DNA of 64,000 nt from Escherichia phage vB_Ec-G1, in the sequence record PQ433349.1. One strand, 5' to 3'. Below are positions 33,073-46,795 of the stretch, one piece after another. Below the pieces are notes generated by a model. The model worked only from the letters and a program-made list of their open reading frames with translations. It searched no databases and was not told the DNA's origin. The position numbers and the translations under genes are program-made. Numbering within the stretch: position 1 is the stretch's first letter; each line of letters begins with the position of its first letter.

Positions 33073-33127
33073 TATTTTAACTTTTTTCATTTTTAGAACA
33101 AAGGTGTCACTTTGTAGCACAGAAATA

Positions 33128-33163
33128 AGGCTCCTACAGCACCGTAGAGAGCCTGTTATTTTG
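33128..33163 (+). terminator. rho-independent terminator after NADAR gene
   Basis: GGCTCCTAC-agcacc-GTAGAGAGCC hairpin followed by TGTTATTTTGT. Confidence 0.55.
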
Positions 33164-33169
33164 TCCTAT

Positions 33170-33520
33170 ACAAACCCTTATCTTTTTCAGTTTGCATCAC
33201 TAGGATTCGATCTAAGTGGGTTCCTGAAGGTCTGCCAATAAGATTAAAGGTTATCTCAAATTCCCACTACCTATTATCTCAAAAATCCCTCAAATTATTT
33301 AAACTTTTTAAGAATTTACAAAAGTGAAAGTTGAAAACCAAAATTTAAAGTTTAGGAAAATTATCTTAAAATGTTAGATACAAAACAAAACTCAAAAATC
33401 AAGGAAAATTTTAAAAATTTTGCGCGCCCACAGTATTTAAAGTTTTTTTGCTTTTACAAAAATGAAAGTACAAAAGCAAAATTTAAAGTTTACAAAAATT
33501 TATGCAGATGGGAATGAGAA
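33170..33520. repeat. AT-rich intergenic region with short direct repeats
   Basis: Repeated TTATCTCAAA, AAATTTAAAGTTTA and TTTACAAAARTGAAAGT units; no ORF. Confidence 0.45.
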
Positions 33521-33620
33521 GAGTTCTCATATGGAAATGCAAATGATAATGATTCGCATTTAGGTTTATAAATGAGATTGATTCTTATTCAATAAGGTAA
33601 ATGATAATCATTCTCATTTA
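33512..33620. promoter_or_regulatory. three tandem palindromic operator-like sites (Fur-box-like)
   Basis: ATGAGAAgagTTCTCAT, AAATGATAATgATTCGCATTT and AAATGATAATcATTCTCATTT; resemble the TGATAATnATTATCA Fur-box core. Confidence 0.45.
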
Positions 33621-33878
33621 AAGAATGACGCGCAGGGGCGGTGTTTGTCTCGCGCTCCCGTGTCCCCTCGCCATGTAATAAGAATAACAGATCCAGCCAG
33701 GAAAGCAAGCGATTATTTTATCTTTACATTTCTTTACAAATATATAGCGCCCAGCCTACCGGCGATCAACCTTCCAACCAGTGCCCCCTGGTATGTTAGC
33801 CCCGCCTTTACGCCGTGGGGTGGCGCTTCCTCTTCTGTATGTAAAACAGTATAAGCCCGATCCCTGGGCTTGTCAAGA

Positions 33879-37568: not shown

Positions 37569-37796
37569 ATGGCTATCAATATTGTTCGCGTATCCGGTAC
37601 CGTTGGTAACTCCCAGGTTGTAGCAGTTATCACAGAGAAGAAAGGGGATGATCTTCACTCTTCCTTGAATAGCTGGGCGGTCGCTAACTTCGGGCAATGG
37701 TCGAGCGTTGAGTACATCGAATCCTACCAGGTGCCGACGATTAGCCTAACCGATCTCAACGTTGATCGCTTGTTGTGCCTGGATGAATTAATCTGA
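37569..37796 (+). CDS. hypothetical protein (75 aa)
   Basis: Track ORF after cassette 10. Confidence 0.5.
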   Translation: MAINIVRVSGTVGNSQVVAVITEKKGDDLHSSLNSWAVANFGQWSSVEYIESYQVPTISLTDLNVDRLLCLDELI

Positions 37797-37806
37797 AAAA
37801 AGATTA

Positions 37807-37868
37807 TTGACACCGGAAAGAAAAAGAGTAGAATATATTACATAGGGCGGCGGAATGGTCCACCGCTC
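37807..37868 (+). promoter_or_regulatory. cassette 11: promoter + stem-loop
   Basis: TTGACA then GGGCGGCGGaatggtCCACCGCTC. Confidence 0.55.
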
Positions 37869-37891
37869 ACAACAGAAGAGAGATTATCACG

Positions 37892-38107
37892 ATGGCTAAT
37901 ATCCGCACTTTACTGAAAAATGCAAGTCAAGTTTTATTTTCAGATGACGAGTATTTCAATAAAGACATTACAGGCGTGAAAAATTTAAAAGACGTGAAGG
38001 ATGTTATCGGTATCCGTGGATCTTTACGTAAGGGCGATTACTACGGTAACAAGGTGCAATATAAACTGTCAAAGGATTACAATTTTACTTTGACAATTAT
38101 TTCATAA
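37892..38107 (+). CDS. hypothetical protein (71 aa)
   Basis: Track ORF after cassette 11. Confidence 0.5.
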   Translation: MANIRTLLKNASQVLFSDDEYFNKDITGVKNLKDVKDVIGIRGSLRKGDYYGNKVQYKLSKDYNFTLTIIS

Positions 38108-38113
38108 AACCGC

Positions 38114-38173
38114 TTGCAATACTGCAAAAATAAAGTAAACTATATTCATCAAGGCGGGGAATGGTCCGCCGCC
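38114..38173 (+). promoter_or_regulatory. cassette 12: promoter + stem-loop
   Basis: TTGCAA-like -35 then GGCGGGGaatggtCCGCCGCC hairpin. Confidence 0.45.
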
Positions 38174-38197
38174 TAACAAAGAGAAGAGGAAAACATC

Positions 38198-38365
38198 ATG
38201 ATCACTTTCGCTACCCGTGAAGCCGCTCGCAACGTTGCACGTAAAGTTAACGCCGCCAACCTGGGCGCTACGCTTAAAGCCCCGGTGAAAGATGAATCAG
38301 GCAAATGGATCTTCCCTGGTCTGCGTCATGCTGACAAGTTAGGTACTTTAAGCCTTAAAAAATAA
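38198..38365 (+). CDS. small basic protein (~55 aa) starting MITFA
   Basis: Below track cut-off; shares MITFA N-terminus with next ORF. Confidence 0.4.
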   Translation: MITFATREAARNVARKVNAANLGATLKAPVKDESGKWIFPGLRHADKLGTLSLKK

Positions 38366-38368
38366 TCG

Positions 38369-38403
38369 TTGACTTTTCGTTATAGCGCCTTACAATGGGC
38401 GCT
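38369..38403 (+). promoter_or_regulatory. cassette 13 variant: promoter with palindrome overlapping -10
   Basis: TTGACT-N16-TACAAT; TATAGCGCC...GGCGCTATA inverted repeat spans the -10. Confidence 0.45.
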
Positions 38404-38439
38404 ATAGAGAAGAGAAACCACTGCTAACAAGGAAACATC

Positions 38440-38661
38440 ATGATCACTTTCGCTATTGTCGCCGTTGTCGCTGGTCAGGTTTACGTAAACGATACATTCA
38501 CCACAGAAGACAAGGCCGCAGGAGACATAACCGCCGTTTACAATGAGTGCAAGGCAGTAGAAAGGATGTTAGCGCCTTGTATGCTAATGAGTGAACGCCA
38601 GGACGGGATAACAGTATTTACTAACATTGAAACAGGGTACCAAATGGTAGTAACAAAATAA
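38440..38661 (+). CDS. hypothetical protein (73 aa) starting MITFA
   Basis: Track ORF. Confidence 0.5.
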   Translation: MITFAIVAVVAGQVYVNDTFTTEDKAAGDITAVYNECKAVERMLAPCMLMSERQDGITVFTNIETGYQMVVTK

Positions 38662-39094: not shown

Positions 39095-39100
39095 TAAACC

Positions 39101-39154
39101 TTGACAATTTTACAAAACAGTTTAAATTAACAATATAGCGGCAATGGTGCCGCT
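39101..39154 (+). promoter_or_regulatory. cassette 15: promoter + stem-loop
   Basis: TTGACA then AGCGGCaatggtGCCGCT. Confidence 0.5.
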
Positions 39155-39173
39155 CATATGAAGAGGAAACAAA

Positions 39174-39320
39174 ATGAATACATCTAATCGCGCAGAAAAA
39201 ATTCAATCTTCCAAGATCCGCAAGGCCTGGAACGAGGAAGTGATCCGCAAAGGCGACAAGCGCAATAAAACAAAGCGCGGGAAGAGTGACAAATATAATT
39301 GGATGGATTTAGAGGATTAA
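39174..39320 (+). CDS. small basic protein (~48 aa)
   Basis: Below track cut-off; RBS AGAGGAAA; followed by terminator. Confidence 0.4.
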   Translation: MNTSNRAEKIQSSKIRKAWNEEVIRKGDKRNKTKRGKSDKYNWMDLED

Positions 39321-39327
39321 CATAACA

Positions 39328-39355
39328 AGGGCGCACCAAGCGCCCTTTCTTTTTA
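39328..39355 (+). terminator. rho-independent terminator
   Basis: AGGGCGC-acca-AGCGCCCT hairpin followed by TTCTTTTTAT. Confidence 0.65.
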
Positions 39356-39375
39356 TATACAGAGGATAAACAAAG

Positions 39376-39561
39376 ATGACTTTAAACGAGCTTAAAACAG
39401 CCTACAACGCAACATTAAAAATAGCCGTGCGTTACCGTGATGCGTATGGTTTTATCGCGCAGGGCGTGATCCTGGGCTTTTCTGACGATGGTTTGATCTA
39501 TGTTGATGCACATCACAACAAGGTTAAACCTGAAAACGTCATTAACATAAAATATCTTTAA
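39376..39561 (+). CDS. small hypothetical protein (61 aa)
   Basis: Track ORF. Confidence 0.45.
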   Translation: MTLNELKTAYNATLKIAVRYRDAYGFIAQGVILGFSDDGLIYVDAHHNKVKPENVINIKYL

Positions 39562-39567
39562 AAACGG

Positions 39568-39627
39568 TTGACACCATAACCGGACCTGTTAAACTGTATT
39601 ACATCAGGCGGGGGAATAGTTCCCCAC
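39568..39627 (+). promoter_or_regulatory. cassette 16: promoter + stem-loop
   Basis: TTGACA then GGCGGGGGAAtagTTCCCC. Confidence 0.5.
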
Positions 39628-39647
39628 CATACAAAAAGGTAAATATT

Positions 39648-39854
39648 ATGATCACCGCAAAACAAGAAAAAATTATTATCGACGTTGCAGCCGTTGCCGC
39701 TATTGCTATTATTGGATCTTATTATGATACCCGTTTCCCGTCGGCTATGCATGAGATCGCCGCCGTTGCATCAGTTGGCGTGCTGTTTTACGTTGGTAAA
39801 CGCTATTTATCACCAATGATTAACAAGCTAACACCGTGGAAAAATAAAGGTTGA
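39648..39854 (+). CDS. small membrane protein (68 aa)
   Basis: Track ORF; hydrophobic segments. Confidence 0.5.
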   Translation: MITAKQEKIIIDVAAVAAIAIIGSYYDTRFPSAMHEIAAVASVGVLFYVGKRYLSPMINKLTPWKNKG

Positions 39855-39905
39855 TCCTGCTTTATATTGTGTTATAGTTATCGTGTAGGGCGGCAATGGT
39901 GCCGC
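39851..39905 (+). promoter_or_regulatory. cassette 17: promoter + stem-loop
   Basis: TTGATC -35 then GCGGCAatggTGCCGC hairpin. Confidence 0.45.
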
Positions 39906-42272: not shown

Positions 42273-42572
42273 ATGGAAACTATCGCTATTGTTACCGTAG
42301 AAAAACTGGTTGTTGGTGATGTATTCGCGTTAATGGTGCCTAACAGCAGCAAGCTGGGCGCTTATGAAGTGATGGACCATAAAAATGAATCATTTGGCGA
42401 CGGTTGCACAATGGCGGTAAGATCCTTAAAGGATGGAATCATCCGCCAGGCTAACTGGCACAAAGGGAATCAAGTCGGTTTAATATCAGCTAATTTCTTG
42501 CCAGAAGAGCAAACATTAGACCAACTATCAGGCGGTAAGACGTTAGCCGAACTACTGGAAACAGCGATCTAA
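42273..42572 (+). CDS. hypothetical protein (99 aa)
   Basis: Track ORF after cassette 23; followed by GGGGCGgcaaCGCCCC hairpin. Confidence 0.55.
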   Translation: METIAIVTVEKLVVGDVFALMVPNSSKLGAYEVMDHKNESFGDGCTMAVRSLKDGIIRQANWHKGNQVGLISANFLPEEQTLDQLSGGKTLAELLETAI

Positions 42573-42625
42573 TCAACAAAGGGGCGGCAACGCCCCATTA
42601 AACGCAATAGGAAGAGGATAGACAC

Positions 42626-42916
42626 ATGAAAAAGATGATCGCAGTAGTTGCCCTGGTTGTTGGTATTAACGCGCCTGTACTGGCTAATGAGTTGCCAGAA
42701 TCCATCACGCTAACCGATATCCACGCAATAAACCGGATCGGCGTTAATTATCGCCTATGCCTTGCCGCTAAAACTTTTAAGGACGGCGAAACAGAATATC
42801 ACGGATTCGAGGGCATCCGCTGCGGTGAGCTTGCACGCGACCTTAAGGAAGATCCAGACCTTGAGGCCATACCGATGACCGTAAACGGTAAAGCCTACGT
42901 AAGCCGCCAACAATGA
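42626..42916 (+). CDS. secreted hypothetical protein
   Basis: 96 aa; signal peptide MKKMIAVVALVVGINAPVLA. Confidence 0.55.
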   Translation: MKKMIAVVALVVGINAPVLANELPESITLTDIHAINRIGVNYRLCLAAKTFKDGETEYHGFEGIRCGELARDLKEDPDLEAIPMTVNGKAYVSRQQ

Positions 42917-43047
42917 GAAAGGTAATCATCACAATGGGGATCATAGTAGCGACGCTGGCGCTTATCCCCTTTATAGTTGAATATGTGCTGATAAGTGTTG
43001 TCCTGGTAGTCAGTGACCTATTGGAAACGGTTGGCAACTGGTTTTAA
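42913..43047 (+). CDS. small hydrophobic peptide (~44 aa)
   Basis: Below track cut-off; ATGA overlap with upstream stop; hydrophobic throughout. Confidence 0.3.
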   Translation: MRKVIITMGIIVATLALIPFIVEYVLISVVLVVSDLLETVGNWF

Positions 43048-43225
43048 AAATAAGAAAAACAGGACTTGTTTTTGTTCTGTTTTTTGTTATACTTATTGAA
43101 CGGGCGGCACCTGGAAGCAGGGGGAAGATAATCACCGGAAGACCCCGCTATATATTGATAACTAACGCCTATCAAACAACAAAACATCAAAGGAATAAAC
43201 TATCAAATCTTTACAATTCTACCTA

Positions 43226-43286
43226 TTGACACCGGATCACGCTTACATTATTATTTATCACGTAGGGCGAGCAATACAGCAAGCCC
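43226..43286 (+). promoter_or_regulatory. cassette 24: promoter + stem-loop
   Basis: TTGACA then GGGC...GCCC hairpin. Confidence 0.45.
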
Positions 43287-43304
43287 ACAAAGAGGAAAAT
43301 AAAA

Positions 43305-43672
43305 TGAGCAAATCAGCAATTAAAGCACTTGAAAAAGCACAAGAAGTGATCGCAACGTCAACCACTGGCGCAAAGGTTAATCTTGTTGGTTATCTGACAG
43401 ATGAAACTATCCGTAAAAATTGGCGTAATGCTGATTTACTGGCTTGCTTATTGATTAATAGTGTCGCTAATGCTTTCCAGTGTGAAACAGTCGAGAGCCT
43501 GGAAGAAAACTTGTTCGACAATATGGATCAAGCCATTGAAATATATATTCAATCCAACTTAGATAGCTGGAACAGTAAAACATGGCCTGACAGCTTACGC
43601 AATACAACTGATCAACTGATCCGCCTTGCGGTGATGGTTGAACGCGATAACGTTTACAACAGCACAAAGTAA
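43305..43672 (+). CDS. hypothetical protein
   Basis: Track ORF 43226..43672 trimmed to ATG after RBS GAGGAAA. Confidence 0.55.
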
Positions 43673-43692
43673 GATTATACAAGGGGCGCACT

Positions 43693-43720
43693 AAGCGCCC
43701 TTTATTTTTGCCCGAACAAT
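43693..43720 (+). terminator. rho-independent terminator closing the cassette array
   Basis: AGGGGCGC-acta-AGCGCCCT hairpin followed by TTATTTTTG. Confidence 0.65.
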
Positions 43721-44688
43721 GTTGATAGCTTAAACCTATGAAAAACCGACACAGAACAAAATTGCATAATTTGCGCTATCGAGCTAATCAACCATTAAAC
43801 GAATAACCATACATCCCAGGGAAACAGGTTGTTAGAGAGCTATTTAGAGCGGTTAAAATCGATCTACAACCAACAACAAACCATCAAAAACACCCTTTTA
43901 CCTCCTTTCTAGTGCAATGATAACCATTATCATCTACCTATGATTATCTATTCAATATAAGTGCATAACTATAATGTTGATAATAGTTCGCAACAACTAA
44001 CCCACCAACAACCTAAAACAATAAGCAAACTAATCATAATCAAAGGAATAATAGCAAGATGATTGATAACGACAAACAATCAAACCATGATGAATATTAA
44101 GCAAGATAACGATAACACGACAAAACAACCAACTAACGAACAATAACAAACGAAACCATTAAAAGATCAACTATTAGCAAAATAGTGCCTATTGCCATAA
44201 TAGTGACTTAATGAAATCATTACAAAATGAATCATTCCAAGGATCATCATTAGCACGCTACGCCGGACACGTAGCGAGCTAATAATAAGCCAACTACACC
44301 CCAACAATCATAACCATCGGTGACGGTTATTTCTTGTTACTGCGTAGCTTGCAATAATTGCAAGCGTAATGACGCTTACACTTATTGCGCTGGCTTATTA
44401 TTAGCATTATATGTAATTACCAAGATCATAACATTAGCGCAATAACAATAATCATTGTGGTAATTACAAGATGAAATCATTAGCAAGATGAATAATTGCA
44501 CGTAGCAACATGAGCGAATAGCGACAGGTTGCATAGTGTGCACATAGTGTATAAACATACAAGAAAATAAAGGCTAATCTTTTGGGGGCGAATACTATCG
44601 CGTAGCGATATGTTGAGCACCTTCTCTTAAACGTAAATAAAATCAGAAAATTCTTGATTTATTTTAGTTTTTATGTTAATAAACGTTT

Positions 44689-44709
44689 AAATAATAATCA
44701 TTCTCATAT
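44689..44709. promoter_or_regulatory. Fur-box-like operator site
   Basis: AAATAATAATCATTCTCATAT resembles the sites at 33541-33620. Confidence 0.35.
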
Positions 44710-44867
44710 AAATAATAGTCTGCTTGTCATGAGCGGGATTAGTTGACATTGTTCCGTCATATGATGAAGTTGCCAAACCATTGATAAATAAGTGTTTGTG
44801 TGATTTATAATCAAGTGGCCCACCTTGTCGCTATGTTGGCATGAGCCTTGCATAAGTCATTGAATAC

Positions 44868-44888
44868 GAATGATAATTATTCTCATTC
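44868..44888. promoter_or_regulatory. Fur-box-like near-perfect palindrome
   Basis: GAATGATAAT-T-ATTCTCATTC, 10-1-10 inverted repeat with one mismatch. Confidence 0.45.
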
Positions 44889-45228
44889 GCATGATATTTG
44901 GGAATTGTCGCTGCGTGGACCTGACGGCCCGAAAATTCGCGTTAAGCACTTCTTACGTATGCGCCATGATTTTTGCCATATGATATTGATTCTATTAGAT
45001 ATTCTTGCCATGATTGCCATGAAACAGGGTGTCCCGAAATAATCTCTCCCCGTAGATATTTTGGGTTACTTTTTATACAAGAGTGGGGTGTCAAAAATAA
45101 TCGGTATATATGGGATAATTGATAGGAATCCCCTATGATAATTCGATTGTAATTCCCTAAGATTGATCGTATGATGTTGGTGATTGATGATTGCCATGAA
45201 AGATGGCTAACGATGAGAGGAGATTGTC

Positions 45229-45603
45229 ATGCAAGAGAGTAAAAATGTTCCGTTGAGTAGTGCAACATTGCTTCGCTTCTATAAAGCATGGATTGCCAAC
45301 TATCCTGCAATGAATCGCACAACGAGTGGCTTATGTGGTTGTCTGGTAGATTATGTAAATGATTTTGTTGGTGAGACAACCAGAGAAGAAGATAGAAGAT
45401 GGCGGGATAGTTTGTTGGACCGTTTGAAATATGAAATGAGGAAACAATTTACATGTGCAGGGCTGGACTATAATCTTCCGTTCAATGCAGATTGCATGGA
45501 TTACCTTTCAGAGTGTATAAACTTGGCGTGTCATACCAACACGTTACGTCTTCAGTGGGTGAAAGACAGAATTGAAGATGCAAATAATGCTTGCATTGAA
45601 TAA
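45229..45603 (+). CDS. hypothetical protein, member of 5-copy paralog family
   Basis: 124 aa; shares FY..W...GLC, LPF and R..WVKDR pattern with four other ORFs. Confidence 0.55.
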   Translation: MQESKNVPLSSATLLRFYKAWIANYPAMNRTTSGLCGCLVDYVNDFVGETTREEDRRWRDSLLDRLKYEMRKQFTCAGLDYNLPFNADCMDYLSECINLACHTNTLRLQWVKDRIEDANNACIE

Positions 45604-45652
45604 AGATGTTTGTATAATGGATGACATAACAGATAGCCAATGAGGAGATGAA

Positions 45653-45862
45653 ATGAAGAATTTGAAAACTGTCACAATGTTCTTGACTGATCCTACACGT
45701 GTGCAAGCACTGGCTAAAGCCAGCCGTGTAGCTGTAGAATTCCAAAACTTTAAGCCGTCCGTTGTGACAGGCAGTGAAACGTGTGTTATCGATTTCATTA
45801 ACGAATACTTCCGAGGGAATCCGGTTGGTCGTTACTTCATTAAGGGTCTAAAGGATGCATAA
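45653..45862 (+). CDS. hypothetical protein (69 aa)
   Basis: Track ORF with GAGGAG RBS. Confidence 0.5.
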   Translation: MKNLKTVTMFLTDPTRVQALAKASRVAVEFQNFKPSVVTGSETCVIDFINEYFRGNPVGRYFIKGLKDA

Positions 45863-45863
45863 C

Positions 45864-46085
45864 ATGAAACGCATGAAAATTCGTATTGAGAATGATGGTG
45901 GTTATAAAGGATTGGCACATGCAAAATTTCCACTTGTGCTGGAAGCTACGGTGGAATACAGTGGGCTTGCTCATGTGCGATTCTCGAAGATGATGGAAGT
46001 GCAGGAATGGTTTTGGGACGAGATAGATGCACGAGAAGGGGAAGATTATGTTTTCCTTCCTCACGAATATGAAATTGTTTATTAA
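45864..46085 (+). CDS. hypothetical protein, paralog of 50474..50695
   Basis: Track ORF trimmed to ATG; shares MKIR..., EWF(W/E), EG.DYVF motifs. Confidence 0.5.
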   Translation: MKRMKIRIENDGGYKGLAHAKFPLVLEATVEYSGLAHVRFSKMMEVQEWFWDEIDAREGEDYVFLPHEYEIVY

Positions 46086-46097
46086 AGGTTGTGTGCA

Positions 46098-46337
46098 ATG
46101 ATCACACCACAACAGAATGAAGCAGCAATGGATCTTCTTGATAGTTTGTATTTCGATAATTGGTACTCTGAATGTGAATGGATGAATATGCAAACTCTGA
46201 AAGAGAAGACAAAAGCGTTGATTACAGTAGATCAATTTCTTGCAGAGACGGAAAGAATGAATTATGATATGGTATCTCGCGCACGACGCGTTTCCATTTT
46301 CAATAAAATGTTAGCATTATGGGGAGGTAGAAAATGA
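46098..46337 (+). CDS. hypothetical protein
   Basis: Track ORF 46089..46337 trimmed to first ATG. Confidence 0.5.
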   Translation: MITPQQNEAAMDLLDSLYFDNWYSECEWMNMQTLKEKTKALITVDQFLAETERMNYDMVSRARRVSIFNKMLALWGGRK

Positions 46338-46795
46338 GACAACCATCTATACTGGAAGCGCATGTGCAATGTGTTGTAGATTATGTCAAAGAACACTCAA
46401 GTTTGTTGAATGTAACCTGTGCAGTGCAAAACGATGTAGGTATTGTCTGTGTGCAACATATCTTATCTGAAACTCGTTATGAAGTATTTCGTGCCACGTT
46501 GTTTGGATGTGATCGAGTGCATGTAAACTTCCTGGACTCCAATTATCGTTATGCTTTAGAAAATATTGATGATTATCTTCCTTGCTCTCCGACAGGATAT
46601 GTAATGGTAACAGCAAACGAAGTAACACCGAGCAACAGTGAACAGGAAGCTTTGTTACGGAAGAAAATACGCCAACTGCAAGTGTTGAATGAACTGAAAG
46701 AAGAGATTGAAAAAGAACTAAAAGAAGATTTTGGTATGCTTCCAAAAGACGCTTTGAAATGGTATGATGAGTTAGGAGGAGAGAACAATGTTTAA
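46334..46795 (+). CDS. hypothetical protein (153 aa)
   Basis: Track ORF. Confidence 0.55.
   Translation: MRQPSILEAHVQCVVDYVKEHSSLLNVTCAVQNDVGIVCVQHILSETRYEVFRATLFGCDRVHVNFLDSNYRYALENIDDYLPCSPTGYVMVTANEVTPSNSEQEALLRKKIRQLQVLNELKEEIEKELKEDFGMLPKDALKWYDELGGENNV

Follow-up and report, generated by a model that had tools for sequence, protein, structure and literature searches.

What does a phage keep in 1.5 kb of DNA that encodes no recognizable protein? The question is raised by positions 43721-45228 of the DNA analysed here, a 64,000-nucleotide (nt) stretch of Escherichia phage vB_Ec-G1 (sequence record PQ433349.1) that we refer to, at its full length, as the window. An initial annotation had described this interval as one region, poor in open reading frames (ORFs) and carrying palindromes and iteron-like repeats, which might be a replication origin, a packaging or recombination site, or the source of a structured non-coding RNA. 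We find instead that its features are split over three functional parts, lying on the two sides of a terminal repeat that had gone unrecognised. The best overall explanation, which we regard as rather probable, is that the interval is the control region of a concatemer junction, and that a module just inside the right genome end, built around a conserved folded element at 44236-44412, acts as a single-stranded minus strand.

The impression that the interval has no convincing ORF is well founded. At a threshold of at least 80 amino acids, 43673-45228 (1556 nt) is the longest ORF-free stretch in the 64 kb, the runner-up being 987 nt; the largest ORF inside this gap encodes 64 amino acids from a TTG start, and none of its nine small candidate ORFs matched a PHROG family. 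No gene is annotated at the corresponding place in phAPEC8, ASO2A, Schickermooser, ZCKP1 and the phiWec phages. The A/C excess noted at 43860-44200 is also real: the plus strand there is 46% A, 22% C, 22% T and 9.4% G, with an A+C fraction of 0.69 that tops all 340-nt spans (window mean 0.50, standard deviation 0.042), the lowest G fraction among such spans of the window, and a GC skew of -0.40 that is tied for the lowest. All of the motifs listed for the interval are present as well. The palindrome CTTGCAATAATTGCAAG (44348-44364), which occurs once in the window, is part of a perfect palindrome of 19 bp rather than 17 bp (44347-44365); the hairpin has its arms, CGCTACG and CGTAGCG, at 44256-44262 and 44270-44276; GATTGCCATGAAA has exactly two copies, at 45012 and 45189; and GGGTGTC..AATAATC occurs at 45027-45044 with a spacer of 4 nt and at 45086-45102 with a spacer of 3 nt. 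For GGGTGTCnnnAATAATC, a motif of the initial annotation, no further copy was found elsewhere in the window.

The terminal repeat and the genome ends

The gap region is 92-97% identical over its full length to phAPEC8-like phages (Phapecoctavirus, Stephanstirmvirinae), and the window is, to judge by its sequence, DNA of such a phage. In a sensitive sequence search, several records of relatives were found to end inside the gap. The Schickermooser record begins and ends with the same exact 329 bp, which map to 44616-44944; the BI-EHEC record has an exact end repeat of 328 bp, mapping to 44616-44943; and the 118_SA_NWU record is broken exactly at 44615|44616. All three records place the first gene 613 nt from the left end, and counting the same distance back from the first left-end gene of the window (45229 - 613) leads to 44616. 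A terminal repeat of 328 bp has been reported for Schickermooser (Korf et al. 2019), and PhageTerm-based repeats of 342 bp and 459 bp have been published for BME3 and LL12. In phi92, which belongs to another genus, identical left and right repeats of 343 bp are annotated at the homologous place; we checked that prefix and suffix agree, and the repeat junctions, GTTG|AGC and CGTTA|AGC, are those of the window.

From these record ends and boundary motifs, we identify 44616-44944 with high confidence as the 329-bp direct terminal repeat (DTR) of the genome, with conserved cut sites. The left site, GTTG|AGCACCT (44612-44622, plus strand), would be cut between 44615 and 44616, and the right site, GTTA|AGCACTT (44941-44951, plus strand), which is preceded by the conserved GAAAATTCGCGTTA, between 44944 and 44945; both predicted cuts, GTTG|AGC and CGTTA|AGC, fall just 5' of AGC. 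The fuller junction motifs, TGTTG|AGCnnnTTCTCTTAAA on the left and AAAAT(T)CGCGTTA|AGCAC on the right, occur in every genus of the subfamily that was examined, with predicted repeat lengths of 321-344 bp. Only one copy of the repeat stands in the window, because assembly collapses the two DTR copies. We infer that the gap is a concatemer junction, in which right-end unique DNA, the repeat and left-end unique DNA follow one another in that order. The packaging-site option of the initial annotation has therefore held, inasmuch as the terminal repeat and the physical genome ends lie inside the interval; the DTR itself was absent from that annotation.

A short terminal repeat with its genome ends is ordinary, and of a kind already known for relatives. 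The window repeat is homologous to those of phi92, Schickermooser and BME3 (328-343 bp) and of LL12 (459 bp), all of which sit in one large gene-free region. Boundaries of the Stephanstirmvirinae repeats lie at the same conserved motifs as in the window, whereas the cut sites of rV5-like phages differ, and a shared GTTR|AGC cut motif was not found in them. Phages of the rV5/phi92/phAPEC8 group are constantly isolated and serve in therapy cocktails. In the databases, most records of these phages start arbitrarily and leave a region of 1.5-2.5 kb blank; the motifs TGTTG|AGCnnnTTCTCTTAAA and AAAAT(T)CGCGTTA|AGCAC let the true ends and the repeat be placed from sequence alone.

Some irregularities were seen around the ends. 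The BME3 record (PP239276) carries duplications of 789 bp and ~415 bp around its ends, with the annotated repeat off the record end; it was rejected as a clean end reference for its internal duplications, and only the annotated repeat was used. Bases 5-6 after the left cut (44620-44621) are hypervariable in otherwise near-identical repeats, AGCA being followed by CC, AG, CG or TC and then by TTCTCTT, and the ~140 nt immediately left of this cut are rich in indels. A second TGTTG|AGCA-like motif occurs upstream of the predicted left boundary, at 67 nt in KP2025 and Citrobacter phage Tr1 and at 24 nt in muut.

The folded element and its strand

On the right-end side of the repeat, the palindrome and the hairpin belong to a larger fold. 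Against shuffled controls, the block that contains them has folding z values of -6.1 (plus strand) and -8.0 (minus strand). For the minus strand, the aligned sequences of 14 distinct homologs, which represent at least four lineages, give a consensus of 51 conserved pairs in five helices, which make up a conserved folded element of ~170 nt (44236-44412). P1, a closing stem of 14-15 bp, joins 44392-44405 with 44278-44291. Within it lie the arms P2 (44373-44388 with 44351-44366), P3 (44342-44349 with 44292-44299) and, with P3, P3a (44322-44328 with 44312-44318). P4 (44269-44276 with 44256-44263) is a separate hairpin, the CGCTACG/CGTAGCG hairpin already mentioned. Pairing holds in 99.9% of alignment cells; none of 500 shuffles reached the observed values, and controls with slid partners gave 24-52%. 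In 12 of the 51 pairs both sides have changed. P1 occurs in four perfectly complementary versions (AAGCCA/TGGCTT, AACGCA/TGCGTT, AACACA/TGTGTT and ACCGCA/TGCGGT), and P3a of KP2025 has a wholly different sequence with its pairing kept. A covariance model scores a single match in the window (193.7 bits), and this lies on the minus strand.

The two strands differ sharply in how they accommodate these helices. In 709 cells the minus strand forms 635 Watson-Crick pairs and 73 wobbles, with 1 mismatch, whereas the plus strand, in the same cells, forms 635 Watson-Crick pairs and no wobble, with 74 mismatches that are nearly all C.A or A.C. When the structure is instead predicted on the plus strand, 9 A.C breaks stand against 3 wobbles and two helices are lost. 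Three G.U(T) positions are invariant in all genera. Neither duplex-DNA binding sites nor cruciforms could produce this wobble asymmetry, and we conclude that the element has been selected as a single-stranded minus strand, of RNA or of DNA. That the right-end module works in this form we consider well supported; that the functional strand is RNA we favour by a slight leaning. Of the structured non-coding RNA in the initial annotation, the structured single-stranded element has thus gained firm ground through strand-specific covariation, and its RNA nature shares only that slight leaning. The palindrome at 44347-44365 has an invariant stem and a variable centre across homologs; its halves belong, on the minus strand, to the covarying helix P2, and it may also be a protein site or an alternative hairpin.

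The folded element appears to be undescribed. Rfam 15 gave no match at E<=1 in 42500-46500, and a permissive Rfam search of the phi92, Klebsiella and Citrobacter phages and of LL12 gave only a chance-level suhB match elsewhere. No counterpart was found in 5,426 E. coli genomes, which leaves host mimicry unsupported. A scan of IMG/VR with the GC-rich palindrome CGCGACTCCGTCGCG returned almost only unrelated contigs and was discarded; one match of the first scan was likewise due to chance.

How widely is the element kept? Among twelve Phapecoctavirus-group genomes, the divergent phiWec/PsgM04F lineage has only ~65-68% identity in the repeat and in the leader beyond it (the repeat is ~65% identical in the phiWec group vs 98% in close relatives), with 89-100% identity at 43720-44400. 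As proof of selection, the latter figure is weakened by the neighbouring gene, which is also ~93% identical in the phiWec group and makes the stretch a possible mosaic block, a point that counts against a functional reading of this identity. The comparison was therefore extended to other genera. The best-kept piece there is 44241-44405, at 74-78% identity, which lies a few hundred bases inside the repeat in Justusliebigvirus, in the Klebsiella phages phi1_175008, KP2025 and FKP3, and in Citrobacter phage Tr1. The spacer between element and repeat ranges from 181 to 336 nt across genera, and the idea of a fixed spacing was rejected on this account. The folded element is conserved across Stephanstirmvirinae, as are two features that accompany it, a cluster of ATTAGC repeats and a block of skewed composition.

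The skewed block (43711-44235; core 43860-44200, ~32% GC) is depleted in G on the plus strand, that is, depleted in C with G>C on the minus strand. It is non-coding and rich in stop codons, which are dense on the minus strand, and its part at 43850-44150, beside the repeats, is an AT-rich stretch of 32% GC. In every genus the block stands directly beyond P4 on the same side and with the same polarity, even where the sequences are unalignable, with a GC skew of -0.4 to -0.7 over 200-500 nt. The ATTAGC cluster (44162-44484, plus strand) has copies at 44173, 44249, 44400, 44433 and 44479 and an inverted copy at 44278: five copies in 350 nt, vs 19 in the whole 64 kb, where no other 350 nt hold more than two. 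Four of the clustered copies are embedded in a repeat of ~17 nt, AAGATSAnnnCATTAGC, with irregular spacing of 76, 184 and 46 nt. On the minus strand the motif reads GCTAATRAT, identical to the start of the 5' arm of P1, and it recurs 5' of P1 in other genera; ATTAGC is clustered in Klebsiella and Citrobacter phages too. Between the element and the terminal repeat, a spacer (44406-44615) contains an inverted repeat with 18-nt arms (44412-44429 with 44451-44468) and a hypervariable, indel-rich zone at 44473-44615. The right-end module, 43711-44615, is thus conserved and non-coding, and consists of the ATTAGC cluster, the minus-strand-paired element and a block of 350-500 nt that is nearly C-free, with G>C, on that strand.

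This combination of folded element, polar block and repeat array, common to a large and much-used group of coliphages, is where the novelty appears to lie. The papers and records that we found for the relatives are silent on the cut-site motifs and on the folded element, the ATTAGC cluster and the skewed block; in the rV5 paper, the corresponding region is merely a box labelled 'non-coding'. One candidate for a coding function inside the C-free block was set aside: a minus-strand Shine-Dalgarno-like AAGGAGGT with an ORF of 6-9 codons (GTG/ATG to TAG) at ~43870-43908, of which phiWec190 keeps AGGAGG; the ORF is not kept in the phiWec phages.

A related module probably exists in a second subfamily. 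In the rV5-like phage LL12, the 459-bp repeat lies within a gene-free region of 2.5 kb, with genes converging on the repeat, and the YN3 record starts at the exact base of the LL12 repeat boundary. The covariance model gives a weak match in LL12, of 21.9 bits, 207 nt from the published repeat. The matching stretch folds at -98.8 kcal/mol (z = -9.4), on the plan seen in the window, with a long A/U-rich closing stem, two arms and a short hairpin with a UCCG loop; this loop of P4 is common to both subfamilies. Once the record is flipped, the LL12 element lies on the side and strand seen in the window and is followed by a G>C skew in its own sense. Among five rV5-like genomes the element is ~97% identical and its flanks 79-85%, and the sole stem difference changes U.G to C.G on the predicted sense strand. 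We regard the LL12 element as a probable homolog of the window element, from which it would follow that the module is ancestral to the two subfamilies. The rV5-like spacer (L031 3426-3640, L082 459-520) holds its own (G)TGACAYAAT-like repeats, which match the start of the closing stem of these phages. A consensus TTGACA was also seen in rV5-like phages, ~20 nt before the repeat boundary on the side of the element.

Possible roles of the right-end module

What would a single-stranded minus strand do at a genome end? In the explanation that we prefer, the minus strand would be transcribed leftward from just inside the right end, converging with the right-end gene cluster, to give a non-coding RNA that acts in cis at the genome end. 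Its 5' domain would be structured (P1-P4), and its tail, poor in C, should be a poor substrate for Rho. Such an RNA would most likely be a primer, or an R-loop-forming origin transcript, for a T7-type replisome consisting of a family A polymerase and a gp4-like primase-helicase; the rV5 paper describes a replisome of this type for this phage group. The displaced minus DNA strand would then be of the polarity needed to load helicase on a leftward fork, and the ATTAGC repeats might mark the right end for terminase, if packaging starts there. Minus-strand transcription is suggested because the invariant wobble pairs fit RNA best, because a C-free untranslated RNA is a poor Rho substrate, because a terminator hairpin stands between the module and the gene cluster on which it converges, and because the window has a perfect TATAAT abutting the 5' side of P1, for which some relatives have TACAAT or TAGAAT. 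A role of the RNA as primer or origin is put forward tentatively. Equally tentative is the proposal that the rV5/phi92/phAPEC8 group (Vequintavirinae and Stephanstirmvirinae) has, inside one genome end, an undescribed family of non-coding RNAs with a multi-helix 5' domain of ~170-230 nt and a C-free tail of several hundred nt, acting in cis either in the start of replication, through a primer or R-loop, or in coupling replication to repeat processing and packaging.

A number of points weigh against this explanation. The ends of this genome were placed by homology and not from reads of its own. Because the minus strand was used for the structure prediction and G.U pairs were permitted, the comparison is biased toward that strand, although even the plus-strand prediction has more A.C breaks (9) than wobbles (3). 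In P1 the outer 10 bp, which coincide with an ATTAGC repeat, do not vary, so that covariation supports the inner P1 pairs only. The strand asymmetry falls short of proof for RNA, as single-stranded DNA tolerates G.T wobbles too, and the skew could reflect a Rho-loading zone for plus-sense read-through. No convincing -35 was found before P1, and a comparison of genera gave only partial -10-like matches there, phi92-like and Citrobacter phages not keeping the hexamer; nor was there a clear terminator on the minus strand. The tail of the predicted RNA is rich in U (46%), and weak rU:dA hybrids disfavour a stable R-loop. Literature searches turned up no transcriptome or RNA study of these phages.

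The proposed organization has partial parallels in known systems. The concatemer junction of T7 and T3 resembles it in the short, non-permuted repeat, the early host-type promoters inside the left end, the T7-type replisome, the repeat-rich non-coding sequence inside the right end, and the need to duplicate the repeat in processing. T7 has sequence repeats flanking its terminal repeat and a promoter at its right end. The window differs in that there is no phage RNA polymerase here and no sequence similarity was seen, that its module, ~900 nt, is much larger, and that the presumed transcription would run away from the repeat and not through it. We know of no multi-helix element with strand-specific covariation described for T7. 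With ColE1 RNA II the likeness is one of layout: the proposed transcript would be untranslated and ~700 nt long, and in it a stretch with G>C (RNA sense) would follow a structured 5' domain. By extension, it might share the use of a family A polymerase and a displaced strand whose polarity suits a 5'-3' helicase. Sequence or Rfam similarity to RNA II is lacking, no antisense regulator was identified, and the tail is U-/AT-rich and not G-clustered. The phi29 pRNA is also a structured RNA (120-174 nt) encoded a few hundred bases from the end of a linear genome, but the window has no Rfam match and another helix plan; moreover, phi29-like phages use protein-primed replication without a terminase-type cut, whereas terminal repeats are found in the group of the window, together with a large terminase subunit, which is annotated in LL12.

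The main rival, possible but doubtful in our estimate, is that the folded element is a signal in single-stranded DNA, exposed when the terminal repeat is duplicated by strand displacement. After a nick at the right cut, strand displacement would peel the minus strand through the repeat into the element, whose hairpins would direct strand-specific priming or primosome loading (G4-type, ssi) or form a fold-back primer, and the displaced repeat would become double-stranded. Such a signal would account for the selection of one strand and for the lack of a conserved promoter, none having been found, and it agrees with the position of the element, which keeps a constant side and polarity relative to the repeat, 181-336 nt away, in two subfamilies. 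A T7-type primase-helicase is available in these phages, and models of repeat duplication in T7 lend further support: according to a passage in PMC4281155 (citing Chung & Hinkle 1990), this duplication is believed to require either strand displacement or synthesis started by primase, and an intermediate with a hairpin has been observed. The three invariant G.U(T) positions and the 73 tolerated wobbles are, however, more typical of RNA, since G.T destabilises DNA hairpins, and the DNA signal would leave the conserved C-free block of 350-500 nt unexplained; the variable spacing between element and repeat also speaks against it. G4-type complementary-strand origins and plasmid ssi sites are similar in architecture, being strand-specific multi-hairpin elements of 100-200 nt that are active on an exposed strand. 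They act, in contrast, on single-stranded replication intermediates of phages and plasmids, and the conserved wobbles of the window element fit RNA better.

For the question of how large myoviruses with short repeats start replication and duplicate the repeat, the element offers a concrete target for mutation, by which an RNA could be told from a single-stranded DNA signal. If it is RNA, it would define a new family of phage RNAs that act in cis at genome ends; if the cis-acting non-coding RNA is real, a terminase-packaging myovirus would have an RNA-dependent mechanism at its genome ends.

Could the skewed block have a function of its own? The G-depleted block may be a Rho-loading insulator, protecting the packaging and cut sites from plus-sense read-through, with the folded element as a separate entity; as a full account, we find this somewhat unlikely. 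C-rich, G-poor untranslated RNA is a known substrate for Rho, and the plus strand of the block has C > G with 9.4% G directly downstream of a plus-strand terminator, a layout that recurs, with genes converging on the repeat, in every genus and in LL12. The block is nevertheless far longer than a Rho-loading site requires, and the insulator gives no reason for selection on the opposite strand in the adjacent element; a single minus-sense transcript accounts for both features more simply. The insulator is compatible with our preferred explanation rather than exclusive of it, and could explain the skew alone.

A classical double-stranded origin or pac site, in which the ATTAGC repeats, the 19-bp palindrome and the Fur-box-like sites described below bind an initiator, the small terminase or a host factor beside an AT-rich unwinding block, with the hairpins as by-products, is unlikely to explain the module. 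The significant clustering of ATTAGC is what such a site would show, as are the enrichment of TGATAATnATTATCA palindromes, the 32% GC of the block, the invariant stem GCTTGCAA/TTGCAAGC around a variable centre, which is the pattern of a dimer-binding site, and the repeated TGACAYAAT that rV5-like phages have in the equivalent spacer. Sites in duplex DNA, however, give rise neither to compensatory changes nor to a 73:0 wobble asymmetry, and here a long-range stem spanning ~100 nt covaries in four versions; the repeats are spaced irregularly (76, 184 and 46 nt), and there is neither a cluster of DnaA boxes nor an adjacent initiator gene. DnaA boxes are not enriched (25 found vs 21.7 expected), with one 1-mismatch site in the region, and the neighbours of the gap are small hypothetical genes, no initiator gene standing beside it. 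Lambda cosB and SPP1 pac offer a parallel, in that short repeats (ATTAGC, or TGACAYAAT in rV5-like phages) are clustered 130-440 bp to one side of the cut; the ends here, in contrast, are terminal repeats and not cohesive or headful, and one repeat copy lies within a covarying stem. Binding to double-stranded DNA probably does hold for the repeats themselves, as distinct from the folded element. A replication origin in the gap, as the initial annotation had proposed, is possible by inference only.

Another explanation, which we consider quite improbable, is a gene for a trans-acting regulatory or decoy small RNA that lies at the genome end by chance, such as a sponge that sequesters a nuclease or an RNA-binding protein of the host. 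It would be in keeping with the conserved structure and loops, such as the UCCG of P4 in both subfamilies, and with the lack of a host homolog, and the G/U/A-rich tail could conceivably bind Hfq-like proteins. The conserved position and polarity beside the repeat in two subfamilies point rather to a role in cis, and no terminator follows P4 to delimit a small RNA. Decayed genes or unannotated small proteins with no special function, suggested by automated annotations of 30-80-amino-acid ORFs here in ETEC-TG, PsgM04F and BI-EHEC, are barely credible, as these ORFs are not conserved and have no PHROG match, the minus strand is dense in stop codons, and the covariation, conserved cut motifs and conserved skew indicate a function at the level of the nucleic acid.

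The left-end leader and neighbouring features

Beyond the terminal repeat, a leader (44945-45228, plus strand) precedes the first left-end gene, whose ATG is at 45229. It contains tandem sigma-70-like sites, TTGCCA-18-AATAAT at 45014-45043 and TTTATA-18-AATAAT at 45072-45101, and GGGTGTC..AATAATC is common to both, coinciding with their -10 regions. A direct repeat, ATGATTGCCATGAAA, occurs in the leader at 45010 and 45187, and the part at 45053-45142 is conserved in Justusliebigvirus. The leader would carry tandem host-type early promoters for the left-end genes. The 'iteron-like' repeats of the initial annotation, GATTGCCATGAAA and GGGTGTC..AATAATC, sit in this left-end promoter leader, where they coincide with sigma-70-like promoter matches, and are separated by the terminal repeat from the hairpins, which belong to the right-end module. 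The truly clustered repeat is ATTAGC, at 44173-44479. With early host-type promoters inside the left end and many small genes downstream on their strand, the layout is T7-like, and this analogy suggests that the left end enters the cell first and that the right end is packaged first.

Fur-box-like palindromes recur in the non-coding DNA. One with a 7-1-7 arrangement, TGATAACCATTATCA (43916-43933), has one mismatch to TGATAATnATTATCA; further copies lie in the terminal repeat (44692-44706 and 44871-44885) and in another ORF-poor stretch (33544-33558 and 33602-33616). The window has seven TGATAATnATTATCA-like palindromes vs 0.72 expected, a count that none of 100 shuffles reached. In phi92-like phages a perfect copy occurs in the terminal repeat at a matching offset (79-93 in phi92, 77-91 in the window repeat). 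Either host Fur or a DNA-binding protein of the phage could bind these palindromes.

At the other border of the gap, the last right-end gene (43305-43672) is followed by an intrinsic terminator (43681-43710, plus strand) with a 9-bp stem, 6 of whose pairs are GC, and then TTTATTTTT. This hairpin, annotated as a terminator in phAPEC8, ASO2A and Schickermooser, lies between the right-end gene and the convergent minus-strand module. In most relatives, namely phAPEC8 (phAPEC8_0017), Schickermooser (gp131), the phiWec phages and DE16, an insertion of ~566 nt places an extra 420-nt gene (L001 3211-3630) between the last gene and the gap; the window (~43672-43711) and ASO2A are without it. No tRNA or tmRNA gene was found in the window.

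Elsewhere in the window, further stretches of 770-990 nt are without an ORF of at least 80 amino acids (37634-38620, 33073-33878 and 39095-39866), and these may hold very small genes or other non-coding elements. Finally, records labelled 'Campylobacter phage' (for instance B15 and A145) and Pseudomonas phage PsgM04F match these coliphage groups over the queried regions. B15 is 95% identical to the window, A112b and A147 are 95% identical to LL12, and their host labels look doubtful.

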